Origin: a virus
Lineage: Duplodnaviria > Heunggongvirae > Uroviricota > Caudoviricetes
Strand: one strand, 5' to 3'
DNA length: 39,032 nucleotides
IMG/VR virus record: IMGVR_UViG_649989948_000008
Coordinates: 1-39,032 of that record
Both the position numbers and the translations under genes were made by a program. Of this stretch, positions 1 through 18,404 are shown one piece after another. The notes beneath the pieces were generated by a model, which was not told the DNA's origin, searched no databases, and saw only the letters and a list, made by a program, of their open reading frames with translations. Within the stretch, counting starts at the first letter, position 1, and each line of letters opens with the position of its first letter.

Positions 1-232
1 CGGAAAGAAAAACTTTATGTTCTTTGGCAGCGATCACGGCGGCGAGCGTGGAGCACTGTTGTACGGGCTGATCGGCACCTGCCGTCTGAACGGTATCGAT
101 CCGGAAGCGTATCTGCGCCATATCCTGAGCGTACTGCCGGAATGGCCTTCCAACCGAGTTGATGAACTCCTGCCATGGAACGTAGTACTCACCAATAAAT
201 AAGCGTCAATACGGTGCTCCGTTGACGCTTAC
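1..232 (+). mobile_element. IS66-family insertion sequence, right end (transposase 3' fragment plus terminal inverted repeat ending ...GTTGACGCTTAC at 232)
   Basis: Protein tail ...GGERGALLYGLIGTCRLNGIDPEAYLRHILSVLPEWPSNRVDELLPWN is typical of the IS66 TnpC C-terminus; the 30 bp after the stop contain an internal 9-bp inverted repeat and end with the reverse complement of GTAAGCG, as I recall for IS66 termini. Confidence 0.6.
2..202 (+). CDS. IS66-family transposase, C-terminal fragment (5' end lies outside the window)
   Basis: Open frame from window edge to TAA at 200-202; conserved IS66 TnpC C-terminal motif. Confidence 0.6.
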   Translation, partial: GKKNFMFFGSDHGGERGALLYGLIGTCRLNGIDPEAYLRHILSVLPEWPSNRVDELLPWNVVLTNK

Positions 233-1828
233 GAATTTGTCGCGATACTCACCTTTTTTAGTGACATCCATCGTCGACCACTCAGCAGTAATATTCCCGT
301 CAGACAACGTATTGAGATACTCGGCAGTGCGTGTATTCAGGAAAGGCGTAACAGACGTCAAAATATGAGAACGCACCCCGGCAGGAGAGTAGACCTGACG
401 AGCTTTTTCCAATAGCAACGTTTGTTCCTGAATAGCCTTCAGCTCATCTTTTAAGGACTTGAAGGTAGACTTACTGGATACCAGGTTATCTTCGTGTCTG
501 GCGATAAGAGCAATAAACGGATTAATCTCTTTTGATATACGATCGACCTCAGTACGAGCACGAGTCACAAGAGACTCAATAGCAACAACCTCCTTCTCAC
601 GATGACGCAAAGATGAGAGTTGTTTCGTAAGCTCTTCAATCCGGGCAATGATAGCCGTTACATCAGGTGTCGTTTTAACAAGGGCAGACTCAATGCTTAA
701 CGCTTTCTCAAGATTCGTTTTGTGTTTAGCCATTGCCTCTGCAAGTGTCTTCGCCTGACCAATTTCCTGACGTGCTTGTTCAATGAAATTCTCCTTCACC
801 GTTGATAGATCTTCTTCGCAGTAGGCTTTGCCACAAGTAGGGCATGGTGATCCCACTTTAGTACCAACCTCTTCTGCTTTGGTCTTAAAATTACGCGCGC
901 GGTTCATTGCATCAGCCTGACTATTTTCTGTAGCTTTGATGCTTGCCCGAATATCAGTTATCGCACCACGAACTTTGAGCAACTTGGCGTCATGTTCTTC
1001 TTTTGAGGCTAACTTTTTGCGCTCACTTTCGATTGCCTTCTCGGTATCACGGATCTGTTCGGGAAGAGTGCGGATCTCAAGTTCAACTTCCGTTAACTCA
1101 ACTTCGGCACTTGCCAGCCCAGCCAGGGCATCGTCATAACGTTTAGAACGCTCTTGTTCCCATGATTCAGAAGAGGCTTTCGCGGACTCAATTTCTGACT
1201 GTGTTGCCTCAATGGTCGAGATTGTCGACTCCAATTTGGTTTTAACCACGTCCATGCGTGCGGCAGCTGCGTTAGCTCGTTCACGAGCAATAGCGTAGGC
1301 GCGTGTCAGTCTGTCAACGCCAGCGGCTTCTTCTACGATGGTTTTGAGGTTTTTGTCGGACATTCCAGGTAAATCTGGCATAGCTTCTTGGCTCGCATAG
1401 ATGGAAGCCATGAAAACCTCTTTAGATGCACCGATCAGACGCTCGACGAACTCTTGCGTCAGCGCATCTTTGCCTTTCGTCATATCGCCGTCTTCACCAC
1501 GAACGATAAGCCGATTTTTGAACTCTTTGTGTTTACGGTGACGAATGATCGCATATCTTTTGCCTTCATCCTCGATGGTTACTGCAACACGACAGTTCTT
1601 TTCATGGTCGGTAGACAACACATCGTCACCCTTCACACCATGAGCTGTTTCGCCATAAAGACACCACATCAGGCTATTCATTAGCGTTGACTTTCCAGAG
1701 CCATTACTTGATGCGGAACTATCATCACTATTAACACCCTGAATGAGCACTAAACCACGCTGATCTAACTCGACCTCCGCGCTGGCGATAGCCATAAAAT
1801 TCTCAACCTGGAGCTTTAAAAACTTCAT
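206..1828 (-). CDS. sbcC: SbcC/Rad50-like SMC ATPase, apparently C-terminally truncated by the IS66 end
   Basis: N-terminal Walker A (NGSGKSTLMNSL), long coiled-coil, central zinc hook CPTCG at residues ~329-333, second coiled-coil; the C-terminal ATPase lobe (signature motif, Walker B) is absent and the last 9 codons fall within the IS terminal sequence. ATG at 1828 preceded by AAGGTG. Confidence 0.65.
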   Translation of the reverse strand: MKFLKLQVENFMAIASAEVELDQRGLVLIQGVNSDDSSASSNGSGKSTLMNSLMWCLYGETAHGVKGDDVLSTDHEKNCRVAVTIEDEGKRYAIIRHRKHKEFKNRLIVRGEDGDMTKGKDALTQEFVERLIGASKEVFMASIYASQEAMPDLPGMSDKNLKTIVEEAAGVDRLTRAYAIARERANAAAARMDVVKTKLESTISTIEATQSEIESAKASSESWEQERSKRYDDALAGLASAEVELTEVELEIRTLPEQIRDTEKAIESERKKLASKEEHDAKLLKVRGAITDIRASIKATENSQADAMNRARNFKTKAEEVGTKVGSPCPTCGKAYCEEDLSTVKENFIEQARQEIGQAKTLAEAMAKHKTNLEKALSIESALVKTTPDVTAIIARIEELTKQLSSLRHREKEVVAIESLVTRARTEVDRISKEINPFIALIARHEDNLVSSKSTFKSLKDELKAIQEQTLLLEKARQVYSPAGVRSHILTSVTPFLNTRTAEYLNTLSDGNITAEWSTMDVTKKGEYRDKFVSVNGAPY

Positions 1829-2057
1829 ATAACACCTTTGATACCGTGTGTTAGCTTTTGACCTTCTTTCAATCTGAACTCCGTATGCGCCGGGAAGGAT
1901 CTGCGCCTCAATACGCCTTTTCTGGTTAACCTTCCAAGATAAAACGCTACGGGATTTCCTTGTGGCGGGTAGGGCTTGTGAAACATCACCGTCTGGCCTC
2001 GTTCAAGTCTTTTCATCGTGATGGCAAAGTCTCGAAAGCTCCCATAACGACTTTGCC

Positions 2058-3143
2058 TCACACAGCCTCCGAACTCTCCGCTTCGGTGAGGATTTCCTGA
2101 CACAAAATATCCAACTTGCTCAGATCAAATCCGCCGTCAGTATCGTGGACAATCTTGCAATAAGCAGATACCGACTCTCCCAGGCTATCGATTTTGCTGG
2201 TTTCCGTTGTGCTTGCTGTCCCTTCCATCATTGATGACTTACGGATGAAGTTGCACACGACACCTTTTGCACCCATTGTTTTGAGGATGTTCTGGTACTT
2301 AATGCCTTCTTCATCGTTCTCAATTACGGCGCGGAAACGCACGTAGTTGCCGCGAATTTGGTCATCGGCAACATAATCTTCCAGGTTAATGAATTTAGGC
2401 GCACTGGTTTCGTAGTGACTGAAACTGCCGTCCGGGTTTACGATCATGTAACCAGCCAGAGATCCAACATCTCCCCAATTTTGATGGGTCAGCGCACCGA
2501 CACTGATAACTCCAGGAATGACCTCTTTGTGGTTGTGGTAATGCCCACTAAGCACGAGACGAAAGCCGATATCCTTTAACTCCTGCGCATCGATACCGAC
2601 GTCAGGCATTGTTGGAATGGCTTTGTTAATGGATGTATGGATAACAACGTCATGATTATCACCTTCTACGCTCTTACGTAATGCTTTCAGATCGCTGATA
2701 AGCTCCGCATGATTGTTACGCCAGCTAATCAGGTGGACAGTCACATCACCAATTTTTATTGAGTGTGGGCGTTTGCCACATACGATTACCACGCCGATAG
2801 AACTCAGCGATGCTGCTGCGTTGGCGCTATATACTGAATCGTTGGTTTCAAGATCGTGATTACCGGCCAGCATTACTACTGTCAGATCAAGCTCGTTGAT
2901 AATCCACTTGTACGTTTCAGTTACGTAATGCAAAACAGAAGGGGACACAGTTCCTCGGACGTGAAATGTATCACCGGCAACCAACATGTACTTACAACCG
3001 GCCTTCTTCATGGCGATGGCTGCTTCTTTCGTTGCTTCCAACTGTATTTCAAGTCTGGAGTTAAGCCCCTCTGCGTTCGTCGTGGAGAACGCATCCCATT
3101 TGTGGTAGTGGCAGTCAGAAATGACGCCGTATGGCAAAGTCAT
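2058..3143 (-). CDS. sbcD: SbcD/Mre11-like calcineurin-type phosphoesterase (nuclease)
   Basis: Metallophosphoesterase motifs: D-x-H near N-terminus (SDCHYH), GDTFH, GNHD, GHYH. ATG at 3143 in the conserved start context. Confidence 0.7.
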   Translation of the reverse strand: MTLPYGVISDCHYHKWDAFSTTNAEGLNSRLEIQLEATKEAAIAMKKAGCKYMLVAGDTFHVRGTVSPSVLHYVTETYKWIINELDLTVVMLAGNHDLETNDSVYSANAAASLSSIGVVIVCGKRPHSIKIGDVTVHLISWRNNHAELISDLKALRKSVEGDNHDVVIHTSINKAIPTMPDVGIDAQELKDIGFRLVLSGHYHNHKEVIPGVISVGALTHQNWGDVGSLAGYMIVNPDGSFSHYETSAPKFINLEDYVADDQIRGNYVRFRAVIENDEEGIKYQNILKTMGAKGVVCNFIRKSSMMEGTASTTETSKIDSLGESVSAYCKIVHDTDGGFDLSKLDILCQEILTEAESSEAV

Positions 3144-3407
3144 GTGTTTTTCCTTTGTGGTTATTTTGATACAAATTTTAAGAGCAATGAGAAGGTAAAC
3201 AACTATGCATAACGGTATGTTAGGAATGAAACGAGCATCTTAATATACAAAATTTATAAGTAAGTATATACCTATTTATCGTGGCGCAACTTTGCTTGTC
3301 TGTATGACTAAAAATAAGACAGGATCACTGTAGAACGCTATGAGAGCTATTTTGAGGAGGCGTAGATTCTATCTACGCCTATATACGATCTGGAGGGTTA
3401 CAGCGCG

Positions 3408-4043
3408 TCAGTGGGCTTTTTTACGCGCTGCGTTTATGCTTATGACGCCAGCTTTTGGACGTGGGTCAACAAGGTTAAGCTCTTCTTCGCTGTGGTATTC
3501 GAGGTCGAACTCACGTTTTACATGTCTGATGTAGATTGCGGTGAGCAGGCTATCTTTGGTCAGAAAGTGTCCGTAGGATTTGCGGATCACTTCTTCTACC
3601 TTCTCGATTTTCTCACCACCCATACAGAGATGATTAAACCGGCTGTGTTTCCGCAACATTTCGTCTACTGGGCCTGAGTAAACCTTGTCTACTTTCCCAA
3701 AACGGATGATTTTCCCTGTGTCTGCGGATACGAGGCAAATCAGCTTGTCTGGTGATAAACGATCTCGCCACGTCACACCTGAACGGAGTGTGTTGAAGTA
3801 GGGAGCATCCAATCCGATGATCGGTTTACGAAATGCGAGTAATGGAACGTACCTGATGCAACTGTTTAAATGAAAATTCACACCAGCCTTATCAAGTTTA
3901 ATTCTGGTTTCGTAGATCGGGCACTTCGCCGCTATACCGCAGATGTCACAAAGCAACTTCTGCTTATTCAGGTTGGAATTTGATTCGATAGTGTAGGAGC
4001 CGTCTTCAAGACGACGAACCCAGCGCGTGCGTTTTAGATCCAT
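3408..4043 (-). CDS. hypothetical Cys-containing protein next to the replication origin
   Basis: 211-aa ORF with ATG start; Cys cluster CDICGIAAKC; no family recognised by eye. Confidence 0.4.
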   Translation of the reverse strand: MDLKRTRWVRRLEDGSYTIESNSNLNKQKLLCDICGIAAKCPIYETRIKLDKAGVNFHLNSCIRYVPLLAFRKPIIGLDAPYFNTLRSGVTWRDRLSPDKLICLVSADTGKIIRFGKVDKVYSGPVDEMLRKHSRFNHLCMGGEKIEKVEEVIRKSYGHFLTKDSLLTAIYIRHVKREFDLEYHSEEELNLVDPRPKAGVISINAARKKAH

Positions 4044-4121
4044 ATGTCATTTTTCTGTGATTGTTAGCCGAGGCAACGATAACCCACCAGGTGCGCCGAA
4101 GGTAGTAAATGCCTGTTTTAA

Positions 4122-4138
4122 TTATTCACATATCCACA
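4122..4138 (+). promoter_or_regulatory. tandem DnaA boxes (TTATTCACA and ATATCCACA)
   Basis: First 9-mer matches the TTATNCACA consensus exactly, the second with one mismatch; located just upstream of the GATC cluster and iterons. Confidence 0.55.
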
Positions 4139-4143
4139 GGATA

Positions 4144-4202
4144 GATCCTAATAAAGAGATCCATAGATAGATCCTTATATAGATCAAATAAGATCCCCGA
4201 TC
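4144..4202 (+). promoter_or_regulatory. cluster of six GATC (Dam) sites in short AGATCC-type repeats; origin-like
   Basis: GATC at 4144, 4158, 4170, 4182, 4192 and 4199 within 59 bp; same arrangement as the P1 oriR methylation-dependent repeats. Confidence 0.55.
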
Positions 4203-4242
4203 GCTGTAAGCCGCGCCACGACTGGTCTGAAGTCATGTTCAT

Positions 4243-4344
4243 GTATGCTGTCAGCGGTAATTGATAGTCTGTCAGCGGTTCACCGTATGCTGCCAACTGT
4301 TTTTGGTATTCTGTCAGCGGCAAATCAAGTATGCTGTCAGCGGT
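4243..4344 (+). repeat. upstream iteron array (about 5 copies of TATGCTGTCAGCGGT-like repeats), incC/origin-like
   Basis: Copies at 4243-4258, 4265-4279, 4284-4300 (degenerate), 4305-4321 and 4328-4344, immediately 5' of repA. Confidence 0.7.
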
Positions 4345-4364
4345 TGAATGACAAAGGTGTCCAC

Positions 4365-5459
4365 ATGTCCACAAAAAATAAAAAAGGTAAAAATAACAAA
4401 GAAGTAGAAGATAACATCGACAACTTTGAAGAAGGTTCCCTTGAATTGTACACAGGGGAACTTGTCCCTAATAGCAACAATACAGTCCAACCAATTGCGT
4501 TGATGCGACTGGGGTTGTTCGTCCCCACGCTTAAGGGAACAAAATACAGTAAACGTAACAAGCCAAATGAGATCGATGCTTCAAAGGAGCTTGTCCAGCT
4601 CGAAGTAGCCCGTTCTGAAGGCTATTCCGATATCAAGATAACCGGTCCTCGTCTCGACATGGATCATGATTTCAAAACGTGGGTGGGCGTTGTGCGTTCG
4701 CTGGCAGAATACGGCGAACCTAACGGTCGTGTCGAGTTAAGCATCACGAAATTTGCTAAGTTTTGTGGCTATCCATCGTCACAGATCCGCAAAACACTCC
4801 GCGACCGGCTTACAAACAGTCTTTTGAAGATCATGCGTACAACTCTGTCTTTCCAGAGAACGTATGAAGAAAAGAACGTCGACGGCTCTAACAAGATCTC
4901 GCTTCTGATGGTGCACCTCATCAATAGCGTGGACTACAACGAGCAGAAAGATACGGTGGTGTTCTATGCAGAACCGAAGCTGGCCGAACTATATCGCTTT
5001 GACCATAAGGTTCTTTTGCAGTTAAAGGTTATCAATAAGCTACCACGCAAAGAAACAGCACAGGCTCTGTACACCTTCATCGAAAGTCTTCCAACCAAGC
5101 CTGCGCCGGTATCGCTTGCTCGATTGCGTGCGCGACTCAATTTGAGTAGCAGAAATGTCAGCTCGCAGAATCAGACTATACGTAACGGCTTAAAAGCTCT
5201 CCAAGATTTGGGCTATCTCGAATACAGCGAGATTAAGCGTGGGCGGTCGATCTATATCCAGATTCACAGCCGCAATCCAAAACTCAAAGTCGCACCGCCA
5301 AAACCTGAAGACATCGAACCCAAAAAACCAGATGAGAAAGCTGGGGAAATTGATGCCAAACAGAACATTATCAACAAGATAACCGAACTTTCGCAGAATT
5401 TGACGCCTGAAAATATCAAGATGATTGAGATCCTTTCCAATAGTCTCAAACTGCTTTGA
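4365..5459 (+). CDS. repA: iteron-binding replication initiator RepA (P1/RepFIB-like)
   Basis: 364-aa ORF flanked on both sides by iteron arrays; start chosen at the ATG at 4365 because the upstream in-frame part of the track ORF runs through the iterons. Family assignment rests on architecture and recollection. Confidence 0.65.
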   Translation: MSTKNKKGKNNKEVEDNIDNFEEGSLELYTGELVPNSNNTVQPIALMRLGLFVPTLKGTKYSKRNKPNEIDASKELVQLEVARSEGYSDIKITGPRLDMDHDFKTWVGVVRSLAEYGEPNGRVELSITKFAKFCGYPSSQIRKTLRDRLTNSLLKIMRTTLSFQRTYEEKNVDGSNKISLLMVHLINSVDYNEQKDTVVFYAEPKLAELYRFDHKVLLQLKVINKLPRKETAQALYTFIESLPTKPAPVSLARLRARLNLSSRNVSSQNQTIRNGLKALQDLGYLEYSEIKRGRSIYIQIHSRNPKLKVAPPKPEDIEPKKPDEKAGEIDAKQNIINKITELSQNLTPENIKMIEILSNSLKLL

Positions 5460-5576
5460 TATGCTGTCAGCGGTGAAATGTATGCTATCAGCGGCTATTT
5501 TTCTGAAAAGTATGCTGTGAACGGTTAAAGATATGCTACCAGCGGTATAGTGAGATGAACGTATGCTGTGAGCGGT
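5460..5576 (+). repeat. downstream iteron block 1 (5 copies), incA-like
   Basis: TATGCT(G/A)(T/C)(C/G)A(G/A)CGG(T/C) copies at 5460, 5481, 5511, 5533 and 5561. Confidence 0.7.
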
Positions 5577-5736
5577 AAATCATCTATCACCACTCAATGC
5601 TCTGTCATACCTCCCCAGTGGTTACTAACCTCGAAGAGTGCATTCCATATAGGTTTGCGCTCACTAACATTCTATTGCTATTGCGCTGATTGCTTGTAGT
5701 GAAAGGCATTTATTGCCTGCTACTCCCTGATAGAAC

Positions 5737-5991
5737 GTATGCTGTCAGCGGTGTTTTATTGAGGAATTTTTGTTTGGATATGCTATCAGCGGTAATTAAT
5801 GGTATATGTCAGACATTCGTATGCTGCCAGCGGTAATTTTGTTCTGGTTATACCCATACCGGGACACATTATTCATGCAATTTCTTAAGTATGCTGTCAG
5901 CGGTAAAAAATCGAGTAAAGTATGCTGTGAGCGGTGAGATAGACTCTCGATATGCTATCAGCGGTAGTTGATTGTGTATGCTGTCAGCGGT
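5737..5991 (+). repeat. downstream iteron block 2 (7 copies), incA-like
   Basis: Copies starting at 5737, 5779, 5819, 5889, 5920, 5951 and 5976; separated from block 1 by a 160-bp spacer. Confidence 0.7.
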
Positions 5992-6008
5992 GACGACTAT
6001 GAAATATG

Positions 6009-8775: not shown

Positions 8776-11115
8776 TTACTCTTCTACTGACTCGGTGGGG
8801 TTGTCTTTTGCTCTTCGGTCGTCGATTGCCTGCAAAGCCGCAATGATTTCAGCCAGTGGCTTCTCCCGATACATCTCGACGATCTGCGATTTGGTGTATT
8901 TCTTGTCACCAATTTCAACTCGCCCGCTGGCGTTCTTTGGCAGGTATCCTTCTTCCAGCATGTACTCGACGAGCGATTCGATAACGTCGAGGCCACGAGT
9001 AGGATCGAAGTAGAATTTCCAGGTGCATTTGCCATACGGTGGTGCAACTTTGTTTTTGATGCATTCTGCGCCTACGTCCTGGCCGATCTTCTCTTTACCA
9101 TCCTTCATCACCGATGCACCAAGACGGATACGTACAGAAGCGTAGAACTTCGGTGAATCTCCACCTGGCGACGTAGTAGGGTCGCCAAACATTACACCGA
9201 TTTTTGTGCGAACCTGATTCAAGAAGATGATGCAGGCGTTGTATTTGCGTGCCCACAAAGCCAGAGTAGGGAAGTTCGCACTCGTCGCACGAGCCAGTGC
9301 CGTATTGTCGTTCATGTTTAGCTGATCTTTGTCTTTGGCTGTGCCTTCAGCCATCTTTTCGAACTTCTCGGCTTTGGAGTTCGGAACCATAGACGCAAGA
9401 GAGTCAGCCACGATACAGATAGGTGCTGATTCGGGGATAAGCTCTTCATCACGAACCAATTTAAGTATTGTGCCGATCAACTCTACAGAGTCTTCGAAGG
9501 TATCTGGCTGCTTGTATACCCACTGACCGTCATCCTCATCTGCGTTCAGGCCATTGGCTACAGCCAGGCCAACGTCAAAACTGTTTTCATGATCGAGGAA
9601 TACCGCCAGACCATCTTGTTTTTGAGCGGAGATCATCGCTGCTGTTGCAAGGAATGTGTTGTGGCTGATAATCCCGTTAGACCAGAAAGAGTGTGTTTCC
9701 GGCATCGCTACGTCGAACGTTGGTGCTTCACCTTCCTCAATAGCCACGACTTCGTCGTAGAACAAGTTAGAGCCAATTACCGCTGCCAGTTGTGCAAACA
9801 GATGCTCGTTAAAACGATTCTTTCTGCCAATGAAGGAGACATAGATTTCTCGCAGTTTGTCTATTCCGACACGATCGCCGCGGCCAATAACGTGGTCTAC
9901 CAGAGCGTAGTCTTCACGGGTGGTCTTGGTGAGCGACTCGTAGAGTGATTTCACTAAGCCGCTGATGTGCGGAACATAGCCTGAGTAAGTGCGGTCAAAA
10001 CCAATGTCCCGTTTGGTTGCCACTGATAAACGTGCCGGAGATTCGAAACCAATCGTTGACAGAAAAAGGTCGTAATTAGAGCCACTGAATGACAGCCGGT
10101 AATATGTATTTTCATAACCCGCGACGTGTTTTTCAGAGATAGTTGACGTAATCCCCAGATTCAGGAGCATGAGGCGAATTTGCTGTAGCAGCAGCCCACT
10201 CGCGCTCACAACCTCAATGCAGCGACCATCATTGACGTGGCATTCCAGCTCAAAGTAGCCGCGAAGGAATGCAATTTGAGCCTCGCTATTGGCGCGACGC
10301 ACACTCAACGGAACCTGCTTGCCAGCAGCTTTCTCATACTCCAGACCATATTCTTTAAAAAGCAGCGAACGCACCTCTTTGCTAAACAGCACATGGTCTT
10401 CCGAGCCGTTATGTTTTCTCGTAACTGGCATCTTGTCTGATACCAGCGAAATGAGGCGGTAGTACTCATCCTTGATGAAAGGATCTGTGTTAGAAAAATT
10501 CACTGAATTTTCAGAGGCCACGTATCCGTCAGCAATTAAATAGCCCATCAGTTTTGCGATATTGGCATCCAGGTGCTGATCGCCGAATTGATGTGTGCCA
10601 ACCATTGAAGGAATCGTGTCGCCTACACTGATTTTTTCAGCATGTCGCCAGACGACATTACCTAAGTCGTCAACCACACGGATTGGGTGACGGAACGTAG
10701 CCTCGATATAACCGCCTGATGCCAGCTTAATACGCTTGAATTTGCGACGGTTGTTCCATGTCAGGTGTGAGGTCTTCTCTATCACGCCATTTTCATTGAT
10801 GAGTCCAACGTTATGCTCTACATCGCGAGTAGTGCATGTCGCTTTGTACCCTTCAATCTCAAACAACTCTTTCACTGTTACCATTCCACGCTCCGTCAGC
10901 AGCATGGTGTCTGCGGTAACACATTTCCCCGCGCTTGGTGGCCCGAATACTTCTACGATACGACCACATGGGAAACCGCCATCGTAACGACCGGAAATCG
11001 CTTTGTTTAACGGAGGAAAGCCTGTGTCAATCCAATGAGTTACTTTCTGAATTTCGTCGTTGCTACCGATTTTCTTTTTCAGAGCAAGTGCCAGTGCGGA
11101 TTTTCCTTTTGCCAT
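8776..11115 (-). CDS. recA: RecA-family recombinase interrupted by an intein (779-aa precursor, ~357-aa predicted mature protein)
   Basis: Exteins resemble RecA: GRIVEVFGPPSAGK|..|TFLA (Walker A), VFLDHENSFD, VMFGDPTTSPGGDSPKFYASVRIRLG; ATG with AGGAG RBS. Confidence 0.8.
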   Translation of the reverse strand: MAKGKSALALALKKKIGSNDEIQKVTHWIDTGFPPLNKAISGRYDGGFPCGRIVEVFGPPSAGKCVTADTMLLTERGMVTVKELFEIEGYKATCTTRDVEHNVGLINENGVIEKTSHLTWNNRRKFKRIKLASGGYIEATFRHPIRVVDDLGNVVWRHAEKISVGDTIPSMVGTHQFGDQHLDANIAKLMGYLIADGYVASENSVNFSNTDPFIKDEYYRLISLVSDKMPVTRKHNGSEDHVLFSKEVRSLLFKEYGLEYEKAAGKQVPLSVRRANSEAQIAFLRGYFELECHVNDGRCIEVVSASGLLLQQIRLMLLNLGITSTISEKHVAGYENTYYRLSFSGSNYDLFLSTIGFESPARLSVATKRDIGFDRTYSGYVPHISGLVKSLYESLTKTTREDYALVDHVIGRGDRVGIDKLREIYVSFIGRKNRFNEHLFAQLAAVIGSNLFYDEVVAIEEGEAPTFDVAMPETHSFWSNGIISHNTFLATAAMISAQKQDGLAVFLDHENSFDVGLAVANGLNADEDDGQWVYKQPDTFEDSVELIGTILKLVRDEELIPESAPICIVADSLASMVPNSKAEKFEKMAEGTAKDKDQLNMNDNTALARATSANFPTLALWARKYNACIIFLNQVRTKIGVMFGDPTTSPGGDSPKFYASVRIRLGASVMKDGKEKIGQDVGAECIKNKVAPPYGKCTWKFYFDPTRGLDVIESLVEYMLEEGYLPKNASGRVEIGDKKYTKSQIVEMYREKPLAEIIAALQAIDDRRAKDNPTESVEE
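9658..10923 (-). mobile_element. intein with LAGLIDADG homing-endonuclease domain (422 aa) inserted in the RecA P-loop
   Basis: Starts with Cys (CVTADTMLL), TxxH block (ATFRH), LAGLIDADG blocks (LMGYLIADGYV, FLRGYFELECHV), ends ...ISHN followed by Thr; junction codons checked by hand. Confidence 0.8.
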
Positions 11116-14091: not shown

Positions 14092-15261
14092 TCACGACTT
14101 AATAGTTTCTGCTACGTCGGCTAATATCGCTTCTAGTCGTTCTCCCTCTTCAGGTCTGAAGTAAAGAATGTTGGGGTTAAACCCGTAAAAGACAGTAACG
14201 TCAAGGTCTGGAAGATACTCCTTCCTGCCGACCAAATCGGATGGCTTGTTTTTGTTGTTAAACAATGCCGTTGCCCGGCTACCACACGTCAGCACATAGG
14301 TCGGGCGCACCAGATTGATCTCTTCACGCATAAAGTCGGTGAACTGGCCGATCTCGTCTTTGGTGTAGTCCTTTTCTTTGTCTTTCACCTTTTTGCAAAC
14401 GCCTGTGACATAGAGATCGCCCATGCGCAAATCCCCAGCCGTCAACAGCTTGGCCTTAAAATCGTCGTATCCGTTCTCCATAAAGTAACCGGTTCGAGCA
14501 TCATTGCCGTTCGCATTGTCCAGAATGATCATGATTTTCGGCTTAATACCAATGCTGGGGCGGATTAGTTCATCACCTAAGCCCATTTCAGCCGCCATCC
14601 GCGTCATGAGTACGTTAATCTCAGCCGAACGTTTGGGGTTCATCTCAAACGGACGTGACGCTTTAACTGCGTCTATGACAAGGTTTCCCATCAATTCAGC
14701 CTGGTCGCGTAGGCGCTCTGGATCAGTTGCTGGCAGACTACCTGGCTCGATGGATGCAAACGCCCCTACTTTTTGCAGCGATTCGCGCACTCGACTATTA
14801 CAGGCACGTTTCTCGACAGCTTCTTCGAATTGCGCCAGTGACTCGAATTTGCCGCCAACTTTTTCTCGCGCTCTCATGATGGCTTGGCAGCCATTCTCAG
14901 AACACCCTTTCACAGCAGAGAAGGGCGCATACAGCACCTGGCTGCCATCTTCAAGCGTGCGGATCTCGATTCGGTTAGATGACACGTTAACGTCTGGTGG
15001 CAATACGCGAATACCATAGGTCAGCGCATCTTTAACCAGCCCCTGGTGTTTATCTTCGCCAAGAATAGTGAGAGCAGCAGCGAAGAACTCCGCGGGATAA
15101 TGAGTTTTCAACCACATAGATTGATAACTGATTAAGGAGTAAGCAACAGAGTGTGATTTGTTGAAGGCATACGCGCCGGATTTCTCAAACATATTCCAGA
15201 TTTCTTCGGCTCGTTCGTGCGTCAGGCCATTGCTCTCTTCGACAACACCGGTAATTTTCAT
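14092..15261 (-). CDS. dnaE: DNA polymerase III alpha-like (DnaE), C-terminal fragment of a split gene
   Basis: Begins within the conserved region AYAFNKSHSVAYSLISYQSMWLKTHYPAEFFAA; its ATG overlaps the HNH gene stop (ATGA). Confidence 0.75.
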   Translation of the reverse strand: MKITGVVEESNGLTHERAEEIWNMFEKSGAYAFNKSHSVAYSLISYQSMWLKTHYPAEFFAAALTILGEDKHQGLVKDALTYGIRVLPPDVNVSSNRIEIRTLEDGSQVLYAPFSAVKGCSENGCQAIMRAREKVGGKFESLAQFEEAVEKRACNSRVRESLQKVGAFASIEPGSLPATDPERLRDQAELMGNLVIDAVKASRPFEMNPKRSAEINVLMTRMAAEMGLGDELIRPSIGIKPKIMIILDNANGNDARTGYFMENGYDDFKAKLLTAGDLRMGDLYVTGVCKKVKDKEKDYTKDEIGQFTDFMREEINLVRPTYVLTCGSRATALFNNKNKPSDLVGRKEYLPDLDVTVFYGFNPNILYFRPEEGERLEAILADVAETIKS

Positions 15262-15992
15262 GCAGTCACCTCATCAATCTTCACGAACTCATACCCATTG
15301 GAGGCCAGCCAGTTCCGTTGGCGCTCCCAGCTCCATATCTCTTCACGCATTTCACTATGCAGGCGAATGTGGGCGTCTTCTGGAAGTGCTACAAGATTCC
15401 CAGGGGCGTTATCTATCGTATCGCGGTTAATATGGTGGACATGTTCATCGTCACGTAGCTCCCGACCGAGACGTTCTTTCGCTATCAATCGATGAACGTA
15501 TTCGTATTGCGAAACGCCATTGTTACCAACCAGCTGCATCATGTAGCCGTTGGTTTTTACGATGATGCCACCTTTGTAGTTGTTCGCTTCTTCTCCGATC
15601 TTTCCGCGTTTGGCAGCCGCCAGCTTTTCCTTCGTCTCCGCGCGGATTGTTCTGCCGGTTAGCTTTTTCGAAACGGTGGCCACTCGCTCATCGATATCAG
15701 CACGCAGACCGGCATTCCACGAGGTTTTCCCATACATAGGGTTGCCAGTGCCAGTCCGGGCTTCGGAGAGACGCTTCATACGTTCGTCATTATTTTTGTT
15801 TTTGCCACGATTCCAGGCTGGGGTAGCGGAGATCCGCGCGCTTCCGCGCCTGATCCCCCATTTGGCTAATAAGCGGTCAATATTTGCCTTGCTGCAACCA
15901 GCTTCGGCGGCAATGTCTTCTTTTCTCATCAGGTCAACCATGTAACGCTGACGTAACCATTCTTCTGTGATTTTGTACTTCGTACTCGGCAT
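15258..15992 (-). CDS. HNH homing endonuclease inserted between the two DnaE fragments
   Basis: HNH motif EHVHHINRDTIDNAPGNLVALPEDAHIRLH, NUMOD-like repeats and an N-terminal HTH-like segment; preceded by its own AAACAAATTGTTTTCTTA motif. Confidence 0.75.
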   Translation of the reverse strand: MPSTKYKITEEWLRQRYMVDLMRKEDIAAEAGCSKANIDRLLAKWGIRRGSARISATPAWNRGKNKNNDERMKRLSEARTGTGNPMYGKTSWNAGLRADIDERVATVSKKLTGRTIRAETKEKLAAAKRGKIGEEANNYKGGIIVKTNGYMMQLVGNNGVSQYEYVHRLIAKERLGRELRDDEHVHHINRDTIDNAPGNLVALPEDAHIRLHSEMREEIWSWERQRNWLASNGYEFVKIDEVTA

Positions 15993-16040
15993 TTCTAAGA
16001 CTCACTAAACAAATTGTTTTCTTATCTTATAAATTAATTC

Positions 16041-18404
16041 TCAAATATCGAAGCTCGTTATGTCGGCATTTATTGCCATTGCTTCGGCATAAGTGCGACG
16101 CTCACCATCAGCACAAAGTAGGCGTGCTGCTTTATGGATTTTTCTCGTAGAACCATCATCCAGTGACACTGTCACCCAGCCTTCCTCCGCTCGCTTAATG
16201 AAGTCGCCGCCAATGGATTTCATTTTCTCCATATCTTTTTTCCCGATCGCTTTCCTGACCGAGTCTGCTTCCGCCATTGAGAACCCCGCCAAGATTCGCG
16301 TAGCAGCCATGATCTGTTCCTGATAAATCAGAACTCCGTTTGTGTCGCGAGAGATGTCGTCCAGCATTGGGTGTAAGGAATGTGGGGCCATGAAGCCTTT
16401 GGCCACGGACACATAATCGTCCAACATGCCGGATTGAATCGGGCCAGGTCGGAAGAGCGCAGTTGTAGCGACGACCGTTTTAAAGCTCATTGGCTCAATT
16501 CCACCACCTAAATCTTTAAGCAGCTTGCGCATTGGGCCTGATTCAAGCTGGAATACGCCCTGTGTATACCCTGCAGCAAAACCATCCAGCACCTTGCGAT
16601 CTTCAAGAGAAATGGCATCAAGATTGATATCTTCACCTGTGTTCTCTTTTATGTAGCGTTTTGCACTATCGAGCAAATCGAGAGTTGCCAGGCCAAGCAC
16701 GTCCAGCTTAATTAGGCCCATAGCCTCGCAGTAACGCTTGTCAAATGCGATACAACGCGCGTCACCACGGCGTTCAACCGGTGTACGTTCTGTCAGAGGA
16801 ACACCTGCTACGATCATCCCTGCCGCATGTCTACCAAAGCCACGCATAAGGCTTTGTAACTTGCAGGCTGCATTGAATGCATCAGGATATTTTGTTGCGT
16901 ATTTGTCGAGACTTGCCAGTTGTTCGCGCAGCTCTTCCAATGGAAGGCTATCATCCTCGACGTTCTTCAGTTCTTTTGATACCGCCATATCTGCGGACTC
17001 CACACCATAAATACGAGCGGTGTCACGTAGTGCAGAGGCTGCGCCCAGGTAGGTGAAGTTCGGAATGCCTGCAACGTAATCTTCGCCGTAGCGTTCATTC
17101 AGATACTCGATCACCTCATGGCGACGTGCCTGGCTGAAGTCCAAGTCCGCATCCGGCAAGTCGAGACGCTCAGGGTTGATGAAACGCTCAAACAGAAGAC
17201 CGTGACGGATTGGGTCGACGTTGGTTATGCCTATGCACCACGCCACCAGAGAACCGGCAGAGGAACCACGACCAGGCCCAACGGGAATGCCAGTTTCACG
17301 ACTATGATTCATCAGATCGCGCACCATCAGGAAGTAACCACAGAATCCCAGGCGAGTCAGCGTGTCCATTTCGTACTTTAGCCGCTCAACATAAACCCTG
17401 TTCTCAGAAGCAGGTGGTGTGTAGCCAAACTCTTTTGTGGTAAGACGTTTACGCAGCCCTGCAACAGCCAGTTTCATAAGCGTTGCAGGCTCGTCGTCTG
17501 CCATCTTGGGCAGTGCTGGTGGCAATTCATGCCAGCGCCATGTGCAGGCATCGATAATGGAGTCCTGCGTTGTTGAGGCCATTGCAGCTGTTACTGGCAC
17601 ATCCATGCGAACGGAGAAGGCTTTAAGCGCCTCAAGGAGATGGCGACGACCATTGATGGCGTTATCTCGCTGGTGGGGGATACGCAGACGATGCGGCTGG
17701 TCGATTTTTATGTTGTTCGTAACCATGTGCGCAATGTCTTTAATGTCAGCATCGTCGATCGATTCGTAATAAGCGGGATAGAACGCTACTGGCTCTATTT
17801 TCAGTGCGCTGGCGACTTTCATCGCCCGGACGTTAATCTGGTCGTAGAATGGGGTAGGGTGCGGATAGACCACACTATAGAAGTTGTCTTTTCCACCCGC
17901 TGTAATCAGTGTGCTTATGATTTTTGCAAAATCGTTGCGTTGGAACACGCTACCGATGTCGGAAGTAAGCAGGATGATGTTGCCTTTGGCATATGTAGAA
18001 ACCAACTGTTCGAGCGAGAGACGCGGTACAAAGTAGAACTGTTCTCGTGTGTTGGCCACCGTCATTAGTTCGCAGATGTCGCGATATCCTTGCTCATTTT
18101 TAATTAGAGCGGTAAACGAGTAGTTACGTCCCCGCTCTAATGATTCCATACATCTCATAGATTCTTTAGCAAGTTTAGCCCGGTGCTCGTATGTGGGATC
18201 ATCAACAATGTTTAGTTTCACACCACAAATAACCGCCATGTCGTCACCAGCGGCACGTTGTAGTGGAATAACGCTCGCAATATTCATGCTATCTGCTGAA
18301 ATTACAGCGGTGTAGCCAGCTTCTCTGGCAATCTTCACCGCGTTTTCTGCTTTTAGAGCCGACTCCCCAAGTGAGAAGTCAGTTCGAACCATCAGTGCCT
18401 TCAT
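16041..18404 (-). CDS. dnaE: DNA polymerase III alpha-like (DnaE), N-terminal fragment (PHP and polymerase core)
   Basis: GRGSSAGSLVAWCIGITNVDPIRHGLLFERFINPERLDLPDADLDF and RHAAGMIVAG match the Pol III alpha core; ends just after RKAIGKKDMEKMKSIGGDFIKRAEEG. Confidence 0.8.
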   Translation of the reverse strand: MKALMVRTDFSLGESALKAENAVKIAREAGYTAVISADSMNIASVIPLQRAAGDDMAVICGVKLNIVDDPTYEHRAKLAKESMRCMESLERGRNYSFTALIKNEQGYRDICELMTVANTREQFYFVPRLSLEQLVSTYAKGNIILLTSDIGSVFQRNDFAKIISTLITAGGKDNFYSVVYPHPTPFYDQINVRAMKVASALKIEPVAFYPAYYESIDDADIKDIAHMVTNNIKIDQPHRLRIPHQRDNAINGRRHLLEALKAFSVRMDVPVTAAMASTTQDSIIDACTWRWHELPPALPKMADDEPATLMKLAVAGLRKRLTTKEFGYTPPASENRVYVERLKYEMDTLTRLGFCGYFLMVRDLMNHSRETGIPVGPGRGSSAGSLVAWCIGITNVDPIRHGLLFERFINPERLDLPDADLDFSQARRHEVIEYLNERYGEDYVAGIPNFTYLGAASALRDTARIYGVESADMAVSKELKNVEDDSLPLEELREQLASLDKYATKYPDAFNAACKLQSLMRGFGRHAAGMIVAGVPLTERTPVERRGDARCIAFDKRYCEAMGLIKLDVLGLATLDLLDSAKRYIKENTGEDINLDAISLEDRKVLDGFAAGYTQGVFQLESGPMRKLLKDLGGGIEPMSFKTVVATTALFRPGPIQSGMLDDYVSVAKGFMAPHSLHPMLDDISRDTNGVLIYQEQIMAATRILAGFSMAEADSVRKAIGKKDMEKMKSIGGDFIKRAEEGWVTVSLDDGSTRKIHKAARLLCADGERRTYAEAMAINADITSFDI

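Follow-up and report, generated by a model that had tools for sequence, protein, structure and literature searches.

An SbcC-like gene split by ISEc23 at a probable cointegrate junction between an SSU5-like phage-plasmid and an IncC plasmid of Escherichia coli MS 145-7

An SbcC/Rad50-like ATPase gene that runs directly into the end of an insertion sequence (IS) raises two questions, namely what the gene has lost and which DNA lies on the far side of the IS. The window, i.e., the whole stretch of 39,032 bp analyzed here, is a contig (ADWS01000042.1) from the 2010 draft assembly of E. coli MS 145-7. Its position 1 is a draft contig break within a repeated IS, not a biological end. A sequence-only reading of this DNA had proposed that an IS66-family end truncates the SbcC-like gene, that the corresponding SbcCD-like nuclease is probably inactive, and that the site marks an accessory-DNA junction. 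The features that bear on these proposals are listed in Table 1.

Table 1. Features at and around the ISEc23 junction (positions are those of the window unless the record NZ_CP146657.1 is named)
Feature	Position	Strand	Basis or comment
ISEc23 right-hand 232 bp (IS66 family, full element 2,532 bp)	1..232	+	100% match, annotated ISEc23 of NZ_CP146657.1
TnpC, IS66-family DDE transposase: final 66 codons + stop	2..202	+	Pfam PF13817; annotated WP_000080200.1
IS-encoded tail of chimeric ORF: VSVNGAPY (8 codons) + TGA stop	206..232	-	reverse complement of ISEc23 IRR
ISEc23 right terminal inverted repeat (IRR), 24 bp	209..232	+	IRL/IRR comparison
SbcC/Rad50-like SMC-type ABC ATPase gene, 5' fragment, 532 codons	233..1828	-	phrog_77, Pfam AAA_23, Rad50/SbcC NCBIfam and PDB Rad50 matches
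Target-site duplication GAATTTGT, 8 bp, one copy	233..240	no strand	partner copy adjoins left end of second ISEc23, outside window
92-aa ORF, conserved phage protein, between SbcD-like and SbcC-like genes	1825..2103	-	phrog_37951, E=6.7e-38; WP_001348682.1
SbcD/Mre11-like metallophosphoesterase, intact	2058..3143	-	Pfam Metallophos E=8.3e-10; phrog_100 'SbcD-like subunit' E=2.4e-92
Rep3-type initiator	4245-5459		Pfam search
ISEc23 copy 1	record 21972-24503		left flank CTGTAGAA, right flank GAATTTGT
ISEc23 copy 2	record 107129-109660		left flank GAATTTGT, right flank CTGTAGAA

The IS at the start of the window, labelled ISEc23 by PGAP, is a typical member of the IS66 family. Window positions 2-202 (+) are translated without a stop up to ...GIDPEAYLRHILSVLPEWPSNRVDELLPWNVVLTNK and its stop codon; this translation matches PF13817 (DDE_Tnp_IS66_C, the IS66 C-terminal element; E=1.6e-17, Pfam) and is 100% identical to the ISEc23 tnpC annotated in NZ_CP146657.1. 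The boundary of ISEc23 is base 232, at the letters ...GTTGACGCTTAC (...ATACGGTGCTCCGTTGACGCTTAC), and the repeat ends with CGCTTAC, so that the transposase tail and the terminal repeat described from the sequence alone are both corroborated. IS66-family elements have imperfect terminal inverted repeats of 20-30 bp that start with GTAAGCG (PMC11946415). The reverse complement of the ISEc23 IRR opens with GTAAGCG, the IRR and the left repeat (IRL) are identical at 20 of the 24 positions, and the two share the start GTAAGCGT. In the source record, tnpA (426 nt), tnpB (351 nt) and tnpC (1,614 nt) are annotated, with tnpA and tnpB present in both ISEc23 copies, outside the window. All the family hallmarks examined are found in ISEc23, i.e., the tnpA-tnpB-tnpC layout, GTAAGCG repeats, 8-bp duplications and the C-terminal transposase domain. 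The element itself does not differ from known ones; what is unusual is its position, the exchange of its duplications and the second replicon that it brackets.

Several lines of evidence indicate that the junction is real. When window positions 1-3300 (3.3 kb) were compared with 72,556 plasmids by megablast, the whole query was matched at 100% by NZ_CP146657.1 (E. coli MS 145-7 plasmid unnamed1, 198,406 bp), and 439 records covered at least 80% of it. Base 233 is the exact start of the match in all 39 non-source records among the best 40 listed (99.4-99.8% identity), and the IS end maps to base 232, exactly the boundary proposed from the sequence alone. A 300-bp junction probe was found whole in one of the 72,556 plasmids and in one of 5,426 complete E. 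coli genomes, and the same counts were obtained for each of the two IS junctions. Two further assemblies, the 2010 draft contig and a Logan assembly of SRR088910, contain the junction with its chimeric ORF. These single-record counts and the presence in both assemblies indicate that the junction is real and strain-specific.

On the minus strand, the only long ORF at window positions 206-1828 is chimeric. Residues 1-532 of its 540 aa are native (window 233-1828), and residues 533-540 are IS-derived; the nine IS-derived codons counted previously are correct when the stop is included (eight codons and TGA). The Walker A motif and the putative zinc hook reported for this ORF were located as NGSGKST (aa 42-48, window 1685-1705) and CPTC (aa 329-332, window 833-844), respectively. 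The Q-loop region corresponds to window 1382-1399, and residues 5-151 align with the N-lobe of T. maritima Rad50 (3qf7). CPTC lies midway between two stretches (~aa 170-320 and 337-476) that, as judged by composition only, are poor in Pro and Gly, rich in charged residues and helix-prone. The content of the 5' fragment is an N-lobe, two putative coiled-coil arms, CPTC and the initial part of a C-lobe. Inspection for C-lobe motifs detected no signature motif and no Walker B in the 540-aa ORF, as the sequence-only reading had claimed, whereas both are present in the 638-aa intact homologue; the ORF ends at native residue 532, ahead of the LSGG signature, Walker B, D-loop and H-loop that make up a complete C-lobe. 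In RefSeq/PGAP, record positions 20376-21971 (window 233-1828; V9Z36_RS23450) are annotated as a pseudogene, 'AAA family ATPase, incomplete, missing C-terminus', and record positions 109660-109989 as the matching ATPase pseudogene fragment 'missing N-terminus'. Judged from its sequence, the ATPase gene in the window is a pseudogene fragment of a family member and not a functional member.

Comparison with intact SbcC-like genes, a check proposed with the original claim, demonstrates how much is missing. The uninterrupted gene in NZ_CP062914.1 is 1,917 nt long and encodes 638 aa, and intact homologues of 638 aa occur in ~440 plasmids and in SSU5-like phages. Past ...GEYRDKF, the intact protein of NZ_CP062914.1 runs on as NISVQKKGSSKSFQTLSGGEKRKVRIACSLALQDLVSNRASKNIDLFIGDEIDDALDTAGLERLMGILESKARERGTVLIISHKEMK..., and homologues thus extend 106 aa beyond the break. 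The lost 106 residues include the LSGGE signature, Walker B (DLFIGDE), the D-loop and the H-loop (ISH); these C-lobe motifs lie at residues ~546-616 of the 638-aa homologue and are also found in the detached 3' fragment. In T. maritima Rad50 (3qf7), the lost tail has its counterparts in the signature, Walker B, D-loop and His-loop; the tail also aligns with positions 930-1042 of the SbcC model TIGR00618 (1,043 positions), whereas the truncated ORF has no such matches. The intact protein is matched end to end by phrog_77, 'SbcC-like subunit of palindrome specific endonuclease' (E=8.9e-165, 552 bits).

The tail alone matches 791 phage records (tblastn), and most of the annotated matches are named recombination-related exonuclease or SbcC-like, with SPO1-, K- and Bastille-type phages represented. 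This conservation indicates that the tail is an old part of the family, which does not end at residue 532. Source record aside, the region is uninterrupted beyond base 233 in every relative inspected or listed. Natural short homologues are ruled out by the 638-aa length of the intact relatives and the conservation of the tail in the 791 phage records. Decay of the gene before the insertion is likewise ruled out, because joining the two fragments minus one duplication yields a full 638-aa ORF; a comparison of translations revealed that this restored ORF differs from the NZ_CP062914.1 protein at one residue.

The intact homologue resembles phage SbcCD/Rad50-Mre11 nucleases in its Walker A, signature, Walker B and H-loop and in a putative coiled coil with a CxxC hook, and it shares the metallophosphoesterase neighbour and the setting in a replication/nucleotide-metabolism block with phage SbcCD-type nucleases (PHROG 77, 100). 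Nucleases of this type include the T4 gp46/gp47 and T5 D13/D12 class and E. coli SbcCD. The intact form, with its 638 aa, falls far short of the length of E. coli SbcC, for which the TIGR00618 profile spans 1,043 positions, and compared with T. maritima Rad50 it carries a 9-residue insertion before the P-loop. Unlike phage SbcCD-type ATPases, the copy in the window lacks the final 106 aa and hence the signature, Walker B, D-loop and H-loop.

Each ATP site of an ABC/SMC ATPase pairs the Walker A of one lobe with the C-lobe motifs Walker B, signature and His. Insertion of ISEc23 leaves 532 of the 638 native codons and adds eight IS codons and a stop, and the product retains the Walker A N-lobe and the putative coiled coil and zinc hook but not the signature, Walker B, D-loop or H-loop. 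Because the composite ABC site needs the lost C-lobe motifs in the Rad50/SbcC architecture, the 540-aa product would be unable to hydrolyze ATP. The ATP-dependent SbcCD-like nuclease should therefore be inactive, as had been suspected, given the loss of these motifs and the Rad50/SbcC architecture. The intact SbcD-like subunit could retain some ATP-independent activity.

The 540-aa product might instead be a natural or functional short form, serving as a scaffold for the SbcD-like subunit or regaining function together with a C-terminal fragment expressed on its own from within the second IS copy. The 3' fragment is itself undamaged, its open frame reaches into the left end of the IS by a few codons and offers possible GTG/TTG starts there, and the catalytic domains of Rad50 have been crystallized as separate N- and C-terminal chains (matches 1f2t_B, 1ii8_B). 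However, the break is inside the C-lobe, just ahead of the signature motif, and not in the coiled coil; the gene fragments are ~85 kb apart, the 3' piece having no demonstrated promoter or ribosome-binding site; and all relatives inspected or listed are uninterrupted past position 233, with this allele occurring only in MS 145-7 within the collections searched. A functional short form is thus exceedingly improbable, and interruption of the gene by ISEc23 is the preferred explanation.

The neighbouring genes are consistent with a phage recombination nuclease. The ATPase fragment has an adjacent metallophosphoesterase of Mre11/SbcD type, and the 92-aa ORF between the two overlaps both flanking genes, which suggests a coupled operon. 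The wider gene block contains nrdAB, thymidylate synthase, DNA polymerase III alpha (dnaE) and ligase, i.e., genes for phage replication and nucleotide metabolism.

The gene pair could also be regarded as an anti-phage or anti-plasmid defence with a Lamassu-like SMC ATPase, the disruption of which was selected for coexistence with IncC. The intact ATPase has a weak PADLOC match to LmuB (E=4.6e-23, 80 bits), and an SSU5-like plasmid lowered plasmid uptake in Klebsiella, an effect attributed there to a restriction-modification system (PMC8969562); that paper makes no mention of SbcCD. At 552 bits, the phrog_77 match is far stronger than the 80-bit LmuB match, the partner is a metallophosphoesterase of Mre11/SbcD type with no PADLOC match, the gene lies within the phage replication/nucleotide-metabolism block, and the homologues are 'recombination-related exonuclease' genes of large lytic phages. 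A Lamassu system comprises LmuB with an LmuA effector and LmuC, whereas here the LmuB match is weak and the neighbours have no PADLOC matches. Lamassu, Dnd and Pbe readings based on SMC ATPases were rejected as weak generic SMC similarity only, and a defence role for the pair is very unlikely. The pair is accordingly treated below as a phage SbcCD-type nuclease.

The DNA on the native side of the junction belongs to a phage-plasmid. For window positions 233-6000, DNA identity is 76% with Salmonella phage SSU5 and reaches 96.8-99.5% with Escherichia phages Cyrano, CMS-2020a and PhiR41_1. On the basis of this identity, the gene order and the plasmid replication gene, the backbone is classed as an SSU5-like phage-plasmid.

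The complete plasmid record reveals what lies beyond the IS. The two ISEc23 copies in NZ_CP146657.1 are each 2,532 bp, 100% identical and on the same strand, and an IncC backbone of 82,625 bp lies between them. This part carries a RepB-family replication initiator (IncC is the type assigned to the record), a MobH relaxase, MPF_F tra genes, with traD, traLEKBVA and traFHG, and parAB. The 321 nt missing from the 3' end of the ATPase gene adjoin the left end of the second ISEc23, ~85 kb away, and are followed by two hypothetical genes, nrdA and nrdB, in the same order as in intact relatives.

The 8-bp flanking sequences are exchanged between the two copies. At each junction the phage-plasmid side carries GAATTTGT and the IncC side carries CTGTAGAA; GAATTTGT occurs only once in the uninterrupted gene of NZ_CP062914.1, and CTGTAGAA only once in the uninterrupted IncC site. 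The sequence-only reading had called for an 8-bp target-site duplication at the other end of the IS, outside the window. A second GAATTTGT does exist outside the window, but at copy 2 and not at the other end of this copy. A matching duplication at both ends of the same copy is ruled out, since IncC DNA with CTGTAGAA lies to the left of copy 1.

Both parent sites can be reconstructed. An IncC empty-site query of 400 nt, rebuilt with one CTGTAGAA, is matched at 100% over all 400 nt in plasmids among the matches listed; coverage reaches at least 80% in 507 records and identity at least 99% in 499, almost all of these plasmids being typed as conjugative. In silico removal of the IS-IncC-IS segment and one duplication yields the 638-aa ORF and a phage-plasmid of 110,709 bp, a size that falls in the reported range of 85-134 kb for SSU5-like phage-plasmids. 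The site is indeed an accessory-DNA junction, as had been claimed; the accessory DNA is an entire IncC conjugative plasmid, and the site is one of two cointegrate junctions.

Overall, ISEc23 splits the SbcC-like gene, and the two IS copies very probably join an SSU5-like phage-plasmid and an IncC plasmid as a cointegrate. In the complete record, two identical, direct ISEc23 copies bracket the 82.6-kb IncC plasmid within the 110.7-kb phage-plasmid, and the X-IS-Y...Y-IS-X exchange of duplications represents the classical footprint of an IS-mediated cointegrate. Known IS cointegrates have the same structure of two replicons and two identical direct IS copies, the two halves of each duplicated pair lying at different junctions. 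For resistance plasmids, the IS26 copy-in route (PMC6952201) is an example of IS-mediated cointegration; in contrast to that IS26-family route, the MS 145-7 fusion involves the IS66 family.

Two routes could have produced this structure. ISEc23 resident in one replicon might have moved into the other by replicative (copy-in) transposition, or two independent simple insertions, one per replicon, might have been followed by homologous recombination between the IS copies. Homologous recombination between pre-existing copies explains the structure equally well as replicative transposition. Single-insertion precursors (X-IS-X and Y-IS-Y) were found neither in PLSDB nor in the complete E. coli genomes searched, and because of this the sequence does not decide between the routes. 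A literature search identified no report establishing cointegrate formation by replicative transposition for the IS66 family. The identity of the 2,532-bp copies indicates a recent event, and within the collections searched the fusion appears, from the sequence comparisons, to be specific to strain MS 145-7.

The long-range topology of the cointegrate is that of one complete assembly (NZ_CP146657.1). The cell might instead contain two separate plasmids, each with one ISEc23, the 198-kb circle being an assembly fusion across the 2.5-kb repeat or a minor recombinant; the phage-plasmid would then have GAATTTGT on either side of the IS within its SbcC-like gene. Separate plasmids and cointegrate may also exist in equilibrium. 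The IS copies are identical and direct, which would allow RecA to convert one form into the other; both parts possess separate replication initiator genes; and the draft contig stops inside the IS, so that short reads are not decisive. On the other hand, the deposited complete assembly is a single circle with exchanged duplications, and MOB-suite types one record with both replicons. Two separate plasmids are hence considered unlikely, and the cointegrate remains the preferred structure. Because the IS repeats are direct and identical, and replication genes are present on both parts, resolution of the cointegrate could yield a phage-plasmid::IS of ~113 kb plus an IncC::IS of ~85 kb. The SbcC-like gene stays interrupted whether the replicons are fused or resolved.

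Three consequences of the insertion are likely, i.e., the loss of the phage recombination nuclease, the separation of two hypothetical genes and nrdAB from the upstream operon and, in the fused form, a genome far larger than those of SSU5-type phage-plasmids. Co-integrates of phage-plasmids and plasmids are expected to keep the plasmid and conjugative lifestyles, with the lytic cycle impaired (PMC12977533), and the oversized fused genome fits this view of co-integrates as impaired phages. A further-reaching proposal sees in the 198-kb molecule a stable conjugative phage-plasmid, proficient in transfer, that gained IncC conjugation in one step of IS66-family replicative cointegration and in which the loss of the SbcC-like protein blocks the lytic cycle. 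This proposal is tentative and rather doubtful; if it were true, the molecule would be a natural snapshot of a phage-plasmid becoming a plasmid and would provide indirect evidence for IS66-family cointegrates formed via copy-in transposition.

Gene disruption by ISs and co-integrates of phage-plasmids with plasmids are already known, and both gene halves are flagged as pseudogenes by RefSeq. A literature search on strain MS 145-7 found no paper describing plasmid NZ_CP146657.1. The plasmid adds an undescribed case to a known class and does not define a new one; the event is ordinary, and the fusion raises no new question on its own. For annotation, the 540-aa ORF should be labelled a pseudogene fragment whose tail derives from the IS. 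The MS 145-7 plasmid provides a clean, fully reconstructible fusion in which an IS66-family element links an SSU5-like phage-plasmid to a conjugative IncC plasmid of the resistance type. Such hybrids confuse phage-plasmid detection tools and could carry phage-plasmid DNA by conjugation.

The whole window is identical to ADWS01000042.1, a contig of 39,032 bp in the 2010 draft assembly of E. coli MS 145-7 (GCA_000179115.1). On the left, it stops where the draft contig breaks off within the repeated IS66-family element ISEc23, and not at a biological boundary.

ISEc23 also breaks a second gene, the IncC gene for a large Ig-like/DUF4165 protein downstream of traA, the pieces of which lie in L001 and L009, two loci outside the window (see table). 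The distal piece is annotated by PGAP as a complete CDS of 810 aa (24472-26904 in the plasmid record NZ_CP146657.1). ISEc23 reaches to record position 24503, and its left end takes in the first 32 nt of this CDS, start codon included; therefore, the CDS is a chimeric ORF mis-called as intact. The far end of the same ORF is cut by IS26.

In the phage-plasmid backbone, dnaE, encoding DNA polymerase III alpha, is annotated as two pieces (window 14092-18404, - strand) with an HNH endonuclease gene between them; the interruption resembles a split of the homing-endonuclease or intron type more than gene decay. The ORF labeled solely as a LAGLIDADG family homing endonuclease may be an intein-containing host protein, as 779 aa is long for a free-standing enzyme of this type. 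The backbone also carries four clustered tRNA genes.

Features of the window and of the split IncC gene
Feature	Position	Strand	Source
VNSDDSSASS insertion, SbcC-like protein	aa 32-41, window 1706-1735	-	alignment
Conserved 92-aa ORF	window 1825-2103	-	phrog_37951
779-aa ORF, 'LAGLIDADG family homing endonuclease'	window 8776-11115	-	annotation
dnaE piece, 'missing N-terminus'	window 14092-15210	-	annotation
HNH endonuclease gene	window 15258-15992		annotation
dnaE piece	window 16041-18404	-	annotation
tRNA genes (Asn, Tyr, Thr, Ser)	window 26443-26993	-	annotation
IncC Ig-like/DUF4165 gene, split	L001 3300-5732 and L009 745-1128 (outside window)

Alignment with T. maritima Rad50 reveals that the SbcC-like protein has a Ser/Asp-rich insertion of about nine residues directly N-terminal to the P-loop, which is absent from the T. 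maritima protein. Between the SbcD-like and SbcC-like genes, the conserved 92-aa ORF overlaps both neighbors, by 46 nt with the SbcD-like 3' end and by 4 nt with the SbcC-like start, which suggests that the SbcD-like gene, this ORF and the SbcC-like gene constitute a translationally coupled three-gene unit.
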